A program made the position numbers and the translations under genes. A stretch of 64,000 nt of DNA from Octopus vulgaris. Taxonomy: Eukaryota. Shown here one piece after another: positions 23,402 to 59,843 of this stretch. Below the pieces are notes generated by a model, which made no database searches, was not told where the DNA came from, and saw nothing but the letters and a program-made list of their open reading frames with translations. The stretch lies in assembly GCA_951406725.2 (NCBI GenBank), contig OX597819.1, forward strand, positions 22,134,001-22,198,000, in the 5' to 3' direction. Every line of letters begins with the position of its first letter. Positions within the stretch are counted from its first letter, which is position 1.

Positions 23402-23628
23402 CTGAAAGAGAAACAGACACGTTTTAAATTTCAAAAAATATAAAATAGCGATTTTAACAGTTTTATCATTCTACTGGAAATGTTAAGATTTGTATTTCCA
23501 CATCTAAATTCGAGCTAACTGGAGTAAAATTTAGAACTGAAGAGGAAGAATTACAAGGACAACGCAACTGTAATATGGAGAAAATATACTACATGGGTTA
23601 AATCAAATAGCTTAAAATATATACTCAC

Positions 23629-23776
23629 AGACGTGAACATTTTCCGGCATATGACACGTCGGCTTGAATGCGATATTTTGAATGATATACGCAGGTGTGA
23701 TTCCAGCAGTTGCCATTTTTTATGGTTATATAATCTGTGTTTCCCTTAGAACATAGGGCATTAAAGAACCGACAAT
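23629..23776 (-). CDS. Gene A cysteine-rich mature-peptide exon (148 nt)
   Basis: tcttatcaacag|AT TGT...CGT CT|gtgagt. Phase 1, open: (D)CRFFNALCSKGNTDYITIKNGNCWNHTCVYHSKYRIQADVSYAGKCSRL. Same length and Cys spacing as 59696-59843. Confidence 0.8.
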
Positions 23777-24359
23777 CTGTTGATAAGAAAACGATCACTG
23801 TATTGATTATTCTATTTAAACTATTTCGGTAACATAATTATGCCTATACTGGCCCAAAACTTCGGCAAAATGTCAGCAATTTCAGAGGAACGGGTAAGTC
23901 GATTACAATGACTCTAATGCTTAAATAGTAATTATTTTATCCGTCTGGAAGGGATCGAATACAAAACCGACCTCGAAGAAGTATGAATTCAAGTCAGAAA
24001 GCCATTAAAATTTCCGGTAAGCGAAAATGCCCGGCGTGCTAACTATTTTGCCCTCTCATCGTTTCAGTTAGTGATATTCTGGTATATATATTCATTTAAC
24101 GTAACTTATTACGCATTTTGGATATTGAGTTCATATTCCTAAAATCGGAATAGATTAAAGTATTCGTTTGTATTGTTTGTTGCTGGTTTTAAAGGACAGG
24201 TAGAACACATTTCTGTTTCTATATACACCAGTAACATGAAAGGTATTTGGAAGCATTATATTCGGGTCTATAGGTAAAACTGACACTACGCCGGTCACAA
24301 CATCGAGGGTTTCAGTTTTGTGCCCTTAACTTAGTTCTGAGGGTGTTTCATAATATGAT

Positions 24360-24506
24360 AATTACAGGTAAGACTCATTTCTGCTAGTTGAATGGACTGG
24401 GACAATGTGAATTAAAGTGTCTTGCTCAAGAACGCAACACACTGCCAAGAATCGAACTCACGACCATGAGCCGAATGCCCTAACCATTAAGCCACGTTCC
24501 TTCACA
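24360..24506 (-). mobile_element. Older SINE family D fragment (second partial copy at 24960-25080)
   Basis: Reverse complement reads gtgaagg..cgtggcttaatggttaggg...gttcgatt...gttcttgagcaagacact: a tRNA-like head plus core. Confidence 0.6.
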
Positions 24507-24522
24507 CGTTATAAAAGTTATC

Positions 24523-24940
24523 AAAGGCGGCGAGCTGGCAGAAACGTTAGCATGCCTGGCGAAATTCGTAGCCATATTTCGTTCTGAGTTCCAATTCCGC
24601 CGAGGTCGACTTTGCCTTTCATGTTTTCGGGGTCGATAAATTAAGTACCAGTCACGCACTGGGGTCGATATAATCGACTTAATCCGTTTGTCTGTCCTTG
24701 TTTGTCCTCTCTGTGTTTAGCCCCTTGTGGATAGTAAAGAAATAAGAATCGTAAGCACGCCGGGCGCAATGCTTATCGGTATTTCGTCCGTCTTCATGTT
24801 CTGAGTTCAATTTACGCTGAGGTTCACTTTGCCTTTCATCCTTTCTGGGTCGATGAATTAAGTATCATTGGCGTACTGGTGTCGATCTAATCCACTTGCC
24901 CCTCCCCACAAATTTCAGGCCTTCTGCCTAAAGTAGAAAG
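24523..24940 (+). mobile_element. SINE family C dimer with a 15-bp target-site duplication
   Basis: ggcggcgagctggcagaaacgttagc...gcctttcat..ttcggggtcgataaattaagtacc (Deu/Nin-like core), followed by a second related monomer. TSD gttataaaagttatc at 24508-24522 and 24941-24955. Confidence 0.75.
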
Positions 24941-25654
24941 GTTATAAAAGTTATCTTTTAGTGAACCTACTGCGGCAACGTGCATTAAAGTGTCTTGCTC
25001 AAGAACACAAAGCGCTGACAATAATCGAACTCACGACCGTGAGCCAATTGCCGTAACCTCTAGGCCACGCGCCTTCACACCTTATAAAAGTTATCTTTTA
25101 GTGAACCTACTGAACACCTTAATGTGTCCTCAATGTCGCATGAACAAAATACTACGGATTAAGCCACGCTAGATAATGTTACTGACTGTTGTTCTTTTCT
25201 AAATTTTAGTTGATTTTGGGAGGGCTGCTGACATTATGACAAAACTGAATATTATATTGACTGAAGTTTAATGTAACAGCGTAGAATAGAGGTGCTGTGC
25301 ATCAAATTTATGGAAGTAACTTGGGTATATTTTTTGTGCTTATTTGGGTCGAGGTGTTGTCGTATGTAGGCATTCGTATTCGAAAGAGTGTGTGCATCAA
25401 TACGTGTGCCTAGCTTTCAATTATAAATTGTGTGTATGGAACCACAGTTTGTATAATAGTATCGTTATACGTTTAGTTGTAACGTATACATACATACATA
25501 TACATATACATACATATATACACACACACACACACACACACACACACACACATATATATATATATACATAATGTATGTATGTATGTATGTATATTTGTAT
25601 GTATGTATGTATGTATGTATGTATGTATGTATGTATGTATGTGTGTATATATTG

Positions 25655-26150
25655 TTATTGCCAAGCTAATATGGCAGTCCAGGAAAATAGGATGAATGCT
25701 GCCGTTGAATAACTCCGAGAGGCCGTTGCCTCTAGCTAGCTATGTAACACACAAACCTGTGTCCATTATAAACTTCGAATAGGGGAAGTCAGCCGCTTCC
25801 ACTTACTGGTCTGGCACCTACAGACTAATTTCAGGGTATTTGTCCCTTATCAATGCAGAGCAGCCGAACCACCCAGATGTTGCTACTGACCGTCTCTTTG
25901 AAGGATTATTTACCTAAATTCAGTGGAATACATCCACTGGTTTTCAAAAATAGAAATATTAATATTTCTAAGTCTCTCTAAGGGAGACTACGGCAGCAGT
26001 ACTTGTTATTAATAGTTATCGCCGAGCTAACATAGCAGTCAGGAAACATGGCAGGCGCAGTAGCGACACATGCCTGGTACAGCCGCTCTGCATTAATAAG
26101 TGACAAATACCCTGAAACTAGACTGTAGATGCCAGACCAGCAAGTGATAC
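25655..26150. mobile_element. Repeat with a ~60-bp inverted pair (Penelope pLTR-like)
   Basis: 25800-25862 is the reverse complement of 26085-26146. Confidence 0.45.
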
Positions 26151-58079: not shown

Positions 58080-58720
58080 TACCGTTGTTTCAATTTAAAG
58101 ATGCTTCTTTACCCATCCATTATGATATTTCGAATGATGTCCATTGTTTCAAATAGGTTTTAGCATTGTCATTCTAGCTTTTTTTTAAACAATCACATAT
58201 GGTTCGTCCCAAAGAATCAACCTTTAAATAAGAGTTTTGCTTCCACTAGCGAAAGCTATACGTATCTTTCAGGAAGCTCCATACCAATTTAACTTTATGC
58301 AGCATTCGTTGTTAGTTTATGTGCACGCTATGTGAGAAGATAGAATATAGGGGCTTTTGTTAGATTTTTCTCTCCGAAAAAAATAGCCCCCTTTGCTGTT
58401 GAAAAAAATAAACTCGCAGAGGGGAAGTTTCAACATTTTCCTTCAATTTCCTTACACCATTTATGTGGCTGTTTCTGGCAAGAAATTTTGATTTCATGTA
58501 AAACAACTATATTTTGTAGTCATTATCTGTAATCTACTCCCAAAACACTTCAGTAGCTCTACTTTACATGGCTTGCAAACTTCTATGTTCTGTGATCATT
58601 AAAAGTGCAACTACCTCCACAATAACCAGCCTTCAATTTGATTTTCCGTTCCTAGGTTAATCGGAAACAGATTACCGTGCTACACATAAGCCTCTTCGGT
58701 AGTTCAATTATTTGGAGAAA
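58080..58720 (-). pseudogene. Possible Ty3/Gypsy RT-RNase H fossil
   Basis: Remnants LTKAPI, LTTNAA, IG, IAFASGSKTL resemble the L..AP.L...LTTDAS..IG...IAFASR.L motifs. Confidence 0.35.
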
Positions 58721-58777
58721 ATACTACGAAAGCAACTTAAACCGTCTAAAGGACGGGTGCGTTTGCTAGTATGTATA

Positions 58778-59212
58778 TACTCTTTTTAATCTTTTACTTG
58801 TTTCAGTCACTTGACTGCGGCCATGCTGGAGCACCGCCTTTAGTCGAGCAAATTGGCCCCAGGACTTATTCTTTGTAAGCCCAGTACTTATTCTATCTGT
58901 TTCTTTTGCCGAACCGCTAAGTGACGGCGACGTAAACACACTAGCATCGGTTGTCAAGCAATGCTAGGGGGACAAACACAGACACACAAACATACACACA
59001 CACATATATATATATATATATATATATATATATATATATATATATACATATATACGGCGGGCTTCTTTCAGTTTCCGTCTACCAAATCCACTCACAAGGC
59101 TTTGGTCGGCCCGAGGCTATAGTAGAAGAGACTTGCCCAAGGTGCCACGCAGTGGGACTGAACCCGGAACCATGTGGTTGGTAAACAAGCTACTTACCAC
59201 ACAGCCACCCCT
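58778..59212 (-). mobile_element. SINE family A, full length
   Basis: Homologous to the other copies. Confidence 0.85.
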
Positions 59213-59239
59213 GGTGTCTGTATTTCTCACTTCCGACAC

Positions 59240-59468
59240 TTGTCGATCGATGTCAATTTATTTAGGTCTTAGTGGTCTGACACACACACACCGGTAGACT
59301 AAGAACTACACTTAAAATTTATAAGTACAGTACTGGCGTCTATTTGTTCAACTAAACTATTCAAGATGGCCGCAATCATGTAAACTATGAAACATGTTAT
59401 AGATAAAAGACTTTCAATTGTATTTCTGCGCTACTTAAGAAATAGAGAGCAGTCCGTCATAGACTGCC
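59240..59468 (-). other. Gene B last (3' UTR) exon
   Basis: Acceptor tgtttctttttcag|g after a 227-nt intron; AATAAA at 59257-59262; homologous to the gene A last exon. Confidence 0.55.
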
Positions 59469-59700
59469 CTGAAAAAGAAACAGATACATTAAAACTTAAA
59501 ACAAAGAATGGATTCTATGGTTTGTCACTTGAAACATTTAACTGGAAAAGCTTACAACTGTCTTTTCACATTTGAATGAAAGCTAACTGGAATTAGAGGT
59601 AGAAGGGAAGAAGACGGCTGTTACAAGGATAACACAACAGTGATATGGAGAAAATGCATAGAAGCTAAATTAAATAGCTTAAAATATATACTTACCTTTC

Positions 59701-59843
59701 TTAACACTTTCCAACTTGTTTTGATGAAATTTGGACTTGGTTAAGTGGTGAAATTATGCACTCATAATGCCAGCATTTTCCGCCTTTCATGGTCGTCCAG
59801 GTTGTACCTTTTCCAACACACGTGCCATCTTCTTTCAGACACG
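59701..59843 (-). CDS. Gene B cysteine-rich mature-peptide exon (exon 59696-59843, 148 nt)
   Basis: tcttatcaacaaaag|CG TGT...TGT TAA gaaag|gtaagt. Encodes xCLKEDGTCVGKGTTWTTMKGGKCWHYECIISPLNQVQISSKQVGKC*; same Cys framework as gene A. Confidence 0.8.

Follow-up and report, generated by a model that had tools for sequence, protein, structure and literature searches.

Introduction

The MSMB/PSP94 group consists of small secreted beta proteins with ten cysteines and a mature region of ~90–95 aa. A study on MSMB describes introns that are more conserved than exons and cites a squid member of the family, Loligo beta-MSP, that acts as an egg-capsule pheromone (PMC3268785). Snake small serum proteins (SSP1–5), as described in PMC6609765, form a tandem array, evolve at an accelerated rate and bind venom proteins. 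Among molluscs, conotoxins and mussel MgCRP-I combine invariant cysteines and hypervariable residues between them with duplication and positive selection; synthetic MgCRP-I peptides are reported to be without toxicity (PMC4558851). Here, we compare with these systems two paralogous minus-strand genes, A and B, found in a 64,000-nt window of Octopus vulgaris chromosome C6 (C6:22134001–22198000 of the 2.8-Gb genome), whose positions are used throughout for A and B. A first-pass annotation had singled out one 148-nt exon of each gene (23629–23776 in A, 59696–59843 in B) as more diverged than the DNA behind it and had compared the pair to conotoxins. Our reading, to which we assign a probability of about 0.7, is that A and B belong to a tandem family restricted to Octopus, whose members are likely secreted pairs of fibronectin type I (FnI)-like modules and likely binders with a variable surface that tracks changing outside partners.

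A tandem family of two-module genes

Genome searches with DNA and protein identified 16 close copies of the 148-nt exon, which is the third coding exon of the gene, bounded by AG and GT in both A and B. Thirteen of them lie at C6:22.157–22.765 Mb and three at 123.31–123.95 Mb. A distant subfamily with another cysteine set contributes 12 exon-3 copies (five at 22.60–22.73 Mb, six at 123.62–123.82 Mb and one at 115.03 Mb); its module starts with C-x2-C-x6-C-x-C, and the annotated member P0017 has an extra exon carrying two cysteines. The census amounts to at least 28 exon-3 copies, all on chromosome C6. The selection tests below cover the close copies.

Leader, module 1 and module 2 exons are all present with intact frames in 13 of the 16 close copies; one copy has neither the leader exon nor one of the cysteines, and two more consist of exon 3 only within the DNA fetched. 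The product is ~120 aa long and comprises a leader, hydrophobic in all 13 complete copies, directly followed by two ~45-aa modules with ten cysteines and no propeptide. The modules together span 91–94 aa, carry ten cysteines in 13 of the 14 copies with both exons and are net positive in 12 of these 14; the cysteines are invariant across intact copies. Modules 1 and 2 resemble each other weakly (HHalign E 8e-4). The exon that had been taken for a whole peptide is instead one of two cysteine modules of this protein.

Full-length relatives of 93–160 aa were found by database searches in O. bimaculoides, O. sinensis and O. vulgaris only, all of them labelled ‘uncharacterized’ or ‘hypothetical’. 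A HMMER search over 1.84 billion proteins returned 13 matches, 10 of them from Octopus; the other three, weak matches to long bacterial repeat proteins (two of metagenome origin and one of an actinomycete; E 5e-5 to 8e-4), were rejected as chance repeats. Six paralogs have clear best counterparts in O. bimaculoides (62–80% module identity), so these copies are long-lived. For two copies, the match to an O. sinensis protein is perfect across both modules (91/91). A search by keyword and accession among openly licensed full texts found no published description that fits the family, which is apparently uncharacterised and undescribed.

Exon 3 is more diverged than the DNA behind it

The hand counts for the A/B exon pair are reproduced: without gaps, the exons share 67 of 148 nt and 13 of 46 aa, the five Cys codons are the same (TGT, TGT, TGC, TGC, TGT), and two synonymous differences occur among the conserved residues. 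With gaps allowed, identity rises to 81/140 (58%). For the 227 nt that follow each exon, estimated by eye at ~70–80% identity, we obtained 164 identities in 223 gap-free columns (73.5%) and an alignment score of 241, compared to a mean of 66 and a maximum of 96 in 200 shuffles. The exon is significantly more diverged than this segment, whether it is aligned without gaps (Fisher 6e-8) or with gaps (0.003). The same direction is found in 36 of 36 paralog pairs, formed by the nine copies with a matched acceptor-like end, with median identities of 53% in the exon and 77% in the 3′ segment. The comparison between exon and non-coding DNA holds whether or not the 227 nt represent a full intron.

Positive selection on the modules

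We fitted MG94-type site models in our own implementation, the likelihood of which was checked against IQ-TREE (−1696.08 vs −1696.07). For exon 3 (16 copies), M0 yields an omega of 1.58. M2a is preferred over M1a with a likelihood ratio test (LRT) statistic of 47.3 (p=5e-11), M8 over M7, the comparison proposed in the first-pass annotation, with 44.5, and M8 over M8a with 44.9 (p=2e-11), placing ~59% of sites at omega ~3. For exon 2 (14 copies), omega under M0 is 1.08 and the corresponding statistics are 23.4 (M2a vs M1a), 20.6 (M8 vs M7) and 19.8 (M8 vs M8a, p=8e-6). The signal is kept (i) under F3X4 codon frequencies, (ii) when double-nucleotide mutations are allowed (LRT 27.9 and 15.5), (iii) on alternative exon-only and intron-only trees (LRT 47, 54 and 32, where the intron-tree value of 54 was refit from M0 branch lengths and reached from each of three starts) and (iv) in the 12 intact non-chimeric copies that are left after removal of four incomplete or chimeric ones (LRT 36.4). 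Ten null simulations under M1a gave an LRT of at most 4.6. The ratio of nonsynonymous (dN) to synonymous change is above 1 across the close copies. The synonymous tree length of exon 3 (2.3–2.6) is near that of the flanking intron (2.0) and dN is far higher (4.1–4.9), which means that the exon is fast and the intron not unusually slow. Non-homologous insertions in two copies inflate the tree length of the intron-2 flank (3.3), which was dropped as a neutral yardstick.

Relaxed constraint would have the exons drift neutrally except for their cysteines, with the ‘slow’ intron arising as an artefact of counting its alignable or constrained part. Several properties of the A/B pair agree with such drift: the proportions of nonsynonymous (pN) and synonymous (pS) differences are similar, exon identity is even across the three codon positions (21, 23 and 21 of 46), and the two genes align only in short stretches beside exons; in addition, the DNA fetched contains 3 of the 16 copies only in incomplete form. 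However, the models capped at omega = 1 (M1a, M7 and M8a) are rejected without use of any intron data and need a synonymous tree length of 4.3–4.6, twice that of the intron, and all 13 complete genes have kept open frames. We consider relaxed constraint very unlikely. Of the first-pass claim of ‘positive selection on a rapidly diversifying effector peptide family’, the part on selection stands, since the codon models support positive selection in a diversifying, likely secreted family; the label of effector peptide or toxin is unproven.

Gene conversion between paralogs

The copy at 22.30–22.32 Mb lies within an inverted duplicate of the gene at 22.43–22.45 Mb, the two being 95–99% identical over many kb. 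Within this copy, a tract of ~220 nt (C6:22308950–22309160), made up of exon 2 and ~70 nt of intron, is closer to another paralog, which is favoured by 36 informative columns vs 9 in exon 2 but by only 2 vs 27 upstream. The tract is a module swap, which has given the chimeric copy a novel pairing of modules. A second exchange concerns A and B themselves. Their terminal exons are identical at 343 of 364 positions and group at 100% bootstrap, unlike the rest of both genes, and their 3′ ends are 84–96% identical (14190–15903 vs 54076–56630; 13326–14092 vs 48941–49702), compared to 45–60% in the coding exons. The pattern indicates that the terminal exon of A and B was recently exchanged.

Since conversion is real here, at the exon-2 tract at C6:22.309 Mb and in the A/B terminal exon, a bias of mutation or conversion (hypermutation, GC-biased conversion or mosaic exons) might be suspected of inflating dN/dS, or a recent conversion of having homogenised the intron. 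Double-nucleotide changes do improve the fit, and pathway-counted pS (0.43) exceeds intron divergence (0.24). Homogenisation of the intron is nevertheless not needed for the finding because A and B are no more alike over the 227 nt (73.5%) than the family at large (median 77%); intron and exon trees also give the same main clades. As to inflated dN/dS, selection holds for each exon, on other trees, when double mutations are allowed and when the chimeric copy is removed, GC-biased conversion lying outside the models. We regard an origin of the signal in such biases as at least as improbable as relaxed constraint.

Large inverted segmental duplications of 94–99% identity are found in the region, 22.29–22.34 vs 22.40–22.46 Mb and 22.157–22.161 vs 22.351–22.355 Mb. 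The inverted twin of gene A is incomplete, being devoid of the leader exon and of one cysteine.

Cysteine codons and the venom toxin reading

Frozen Cys codons had been put forward as a conotoxin-like hallmark of the A/B pair. Over the ten Cys codons of the family, we counted nine third-position changes, where a codon null predicts 9.4 (P of as few or fewer, 0.53) and an intron null 12.8 (P 0.14). Exon 3 by itself is slightly low, with two changes vs 4.7 (codon null, P 0.13) or 5.9 (intron null, P 0.046), and exon 2 alone shows seven vs 4.8 (codon) or 6.9 (intron). In the A/B intron, 102 of 116 C/T sites are the same, which gives a chance of 0.879^5 = 0.53 that five of five Cys codons are identical. 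There is no freezing of Cys codons; their conservation is what shared ancestry gives. Steiner et al. (PMC3823881) likewise trace the Cys-codon bias of conotoxins largely to amino-acid conservation and shared ancestry. As the present case shows, ‘frozen Cys codons’ are not diagnostic of toxins.

These counts bear on the possibility that A and B belong to a family of toxins that the posterior salivary gland produces for venom or saliva and that act on prey targets. A secreted-type leader, a disulfide scaffold, tandem expansion and omega above 1 are common to many toxin families, and all four are seen here, together with modules that are mostly net cationic (12/14 positive). The invariant cysteine framework with hypervariable residues under positive selection, named in the first-pass annotation, is also present. 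The closer parallel to conotoxins breaks down on several points: the octopus mature region is a two-module, FnI-like product of ~92 aa, the first cysteine follows the leader within a few residues so that a pre-pro layout and a propeptide are absent, the signal exon itself varies (leader omega 1.6), and the Cys codons change at the neutral rate, the supposed hallmark being no better than chance. Moreover, the same genomic signature is described for the non-toxin snake SSPs (PMC6609765), MSMB (PMC3268785) and mussel MgCRP-I (PMC4558851). We judge a toxin family to be unlikely; the toxin label is unproven.

Two further lines of data are neutral in this respect. Four presumed-RNA runs gave no cover on the exons of B (one run) or A (three runs) and provide no evidence either way. 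Six accessions and six short peptides were each absent from the searched part of the O. vulgaris salivary proteome table (PMC7693380) and from the skin-mucus one (PMC10138644), an uninformative result in that the tables may use other identifiers or come without peptide lists.

Predicted fold and likeness to known domains

AlphaFold2 modelling of P0001, the O. bimaculoides counterpart of B, from a 35-row alignment gave a pLDDT (predicted local distance difference test) of 87 and an all-beta mature region. In a Foldseek search with the whole model, fibronectin FnI entries fill the top eight rows (best E 9e-4); VIA aligns it to FnI pairs with Z 6.9 (86 residues, root-mean-square deviation (rmsd) 5.1) and 5.9, and single modules to VWF C4 (Z 5.3, module 1) and chicken MSMB3 (Z 4.8, rmsd 1.5 over 37 residues). 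Exon 3 of B alone is modelled at pLDDT 93, and FnI modules occupy ranks 1–9 of its matches (Z 6.1, rmsd 1.2 over 40 residues). A structure search of the ESM Atlas points to PF23003, the MIG-18-like Fn1_2 family (TM score 0.58); a single match at 0.75 from the ESM Atlas feature search was a lead only and was rejected. As in FnI, the predicted models show a double- and a triple-stranded antiparallel sheet with a conserved Trp. The three methods concur, at the level of predicted models, on the FnI/VWC/MSMB fold group, and we predict the protein to be a disulfide-locked pair of FnI/VWC-like modules.

The best fold matches, both for the whole protein and for the exon of B by itself, are FnI pairs as in fibronectin, tPA and factor XII and the nematode MIG-18-like Fn1_2. 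The canonical FnI spacing is C-x-C. FnI domains are parts of mosaic proteins, whereas the octopus product is a free-standing two-module protein with C-x4-C spacing and extra cysteines. PF00039 and PF23003 do not appear in the Pfam scans run on 15 protein queries, in which HMMER filters drop weak hits, and sequence searches of the PDB gave 0 matches. VWC is matched weakly in Pfam by one homolog (E 0.044; best VWC 14.5 bits vs a cut-off of 27.6), and the SVWC model (PF15430) has no match at these loci. Whereas VWC domains have a C-terminal subdomain with a CC doublet, the octopus proteins have two modules of the N-terminal type instead; the N-terminal half of SVWC has a similar C-x4-C spacing.

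MSMB, in turn, agrees with the octopus proteins in its ten cysteines and the length of its mature region but is characterised by C-x2-C-x-C and a CC doublet. No close copy has an MSMB-type CC doublet or a C-x-C in its mature region, and PSP94 (PF05825) gives no Pfam match for the octopus proteins nor at these loci. MSMB3 aligns to one octopus module at a time (Z 4.1–4.8). MSMB also joins one FnI-like domain to a different C-terminal domain, whereas both halves of the octopus protein are FnI-like, with one exon each. On cysteine spacing, the family falls outside MSMB as far as sequence can tell.

Among the 47 columns of exon 3, 20 have a naive empirical Bayes (NEB) posterior of ≥0.95. In strands 22–30 and 36–44 of the model, these columns and conserved residues mostly alternate. 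If the modelled strands are correct, this alternation suggests one variable sheet face rather than variable loops only.

A candidate family of secreted binders

Based on these results, we propose that the leader directs a small two-module protein outside the cell, that five disulfides would lock its FnI-like module pair and that the selected sites would form one exposed face. By analogy to MSMB and the snake SSPs, the nearest behavioural analogues, the protein may bind other proteins rather than block channels as a short peptide, and paralogs could gain new module pairings via exon-sized conversion, for which one clear tract was seen.

Several observations weigh against this proposal. At the level of selection, the site posteriors are naive empirical Bayes estimates on 47 codons, the A/B pair by itself has an NG86 pN of 0.50 vs a pS of 0.49, and nonsynonymous and synonymous rates are alike in the five closest pairs (p 0.54–0.84). 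Between recent duplicates, exon divergence is higher than that of the flanks in only two of five comparisons (3.8x and 3.8x; the rest 1.2, 0.4 and 0.7), although the pooled counts do differ (40/726 in the exon vs 160/5841 in the flanks, p=2e-4). The leader exon, with an omega of 1.6 and an A/B pN of 0.55, is not predicted to vary by a pure binding-face model, and the two copies identical to O. sinensis proteins show that not every copy is changing now. At the level of fold, the scores are middling (Z < 8; the lowest Foldseek E is 9e-4), exon 3 of B alone has no Foldseek match at E<=0.001, and no Pfam family exceeds its cut-off among the 15 protein queries. Finally, the family is known here from genes and gene predictions.

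It is conceivable, as a tentative extension, that an FnI pair has given rise to a lineage-specific set of ~30 secreted binders, diversified by one-face selection and exon-sized conversion, that serves as a venom, immune-recognition or pheromone repertoire. Prior knowledge only can rank the arena in which the proteins act: reproductive or egg/skin secretion comes first, immune defence and venom or saliva share the next place and any other arena comes last, each taken singly being doubtful.

With at least 28 copies, the family is a newly defined expansion restricted to Octopus, for which gene models, a fold prediction and a robust signal of selection are now available. Secreted proteins that undergo diversifying selection are rare among cephalopod novelties, and the family is a candidate for venom, mate/egg signalling or immune recognition. 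If the proposal is true, the known scaffolds are joined by a free-standing, hypervariable FnI-like pair whose modules are swapped through conversion of exons.

Layout of genes A and B and the 227-nt segment

Gene A lies entirely within the window on the minus strand. Its coding exon 1 (37563–37653) has the ATG at 37647, a hydrophobic leader that is likely a signal peptide (hydropathy 3.1) and a phase-1 donor, and is supported by a nucleotide hidden Markov model (HMM; E=6e-30) and its splice sites. Coding exon 2 (26452–26586), found by tblastn with Octopus homologs and bounded by AG/GT ends, encodes the first cysteine module (C-x2-C-x5-C-x14-C-x4-C), and coding exon 3 (23629–23776), the first of the two exons in the first-pass annotation, the second (C-x6-C-x14-C-x4-C-x17-C). 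The terminal exon (14190–14465) has its acceptor at 14465, a short tail, a stop and AATAAA motifs (nucleotide HMM E=2e-52); its far 3′ boundary is provisional. In gene B, likewise on the minus strand, exon 3 (59696–59843) encodes the second cysteine module with TAA directly behind the last Cys and is 85% identical to the corresponding part of P0001. Exons 2 and 1 of B are located just outside the window, at window-equivalent positions 64032–64169 and 66938–67016, and its terminal exon, a 3′ untranslated region (UTR), is found at 54076–54345 (HMM E=1e-53; 94% identical to that of A).

The conserved segments behind exon 3, 23402–23628 in A and 59469–59695 in B, the latter in the 3′ UTR, had been described as introns of exactly 227 nt. 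The equal length is confirmed, but it reflects compensating indels (98/227 identical without gaps), other copies measure 197–232 nt, and the segments are probably not whole introns. The tails of the annotated relatives P0002 and P0005, which are gene predictions, map to a terminal exon 8.6–10.7 kb downstream of exon 3, with a direct in-frame junction to exon 3. A nucleotide HMM detects this terminal exon downstream of 12 copies, including A (14465) and B (54345). Because the tails of the relatives come from a terminal exon several kb downstream, the 227-nt segment is probably the start of a 5–9 kb intron and not a complete intron; intron 3 would measure ~9.2 kb in A, if spliced to the terminal exon, and ~5.3 kb in B. 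In A, the segment starts at the GT donor and ends at a CAG that resembles an acceptor. A strict pattern recovers this CAG and its pyrimidine tract in 10 of 16 copies; the CAG may serve as an alternative acceptor, and the sequence behind it matches no annotated tail. The conserved non-coding segment that follows in A (23267–23401, minus strand), detected by self-BLAST and family alignment, is a possible alternative exon or intron; self-BLAST aligns 23267–23361 with 59281–59380 at 74.5% identity.

The exon-3 donor completes an in-frame stop three residues past the last Cys in 13 of 16 copies (window 23626–23628 and equivalents), so an unspliced transcript would still yield a near-normal protein. 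In two further copies, B among them, a stop lies ahead of the donor.

Exon structure varies elsewhere in the family. In the copy at C6:22492652 / 22483839, the exon 1 donor and the exon 2 acceptor are both shifted, with the frame kept and a phase-0 junction. At C6:22558283 and 22559145, an orphan leader exon is followed by a terminal exon less than 1 kb on, with no module exons found between them; O. bimaculoides P0014 is likewise without module 1. For DNA runs X1/X2, at least two differences are listed in exon 2 of gene B (L102:5061, 5089), both amino-acid-changing by hand reading, an anecdotal observation.

Reverse-transcriptase open reading frames of the long interspersed nuclear element (LINE) type are located at 27095–29530, 30291–33170 and 60247–62040, all on the plus strand, within intron 1 of A and intron 2 of B and antisense to the genes. 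A dispersed repeat of ~410 nt, probably a short interspersed nuclear element (SINE), occurs at 456–877, 11302–11713, 12905–13319, 39756–40153, 50165–50537 and 58770–59231, with 70–92% identity between copies.

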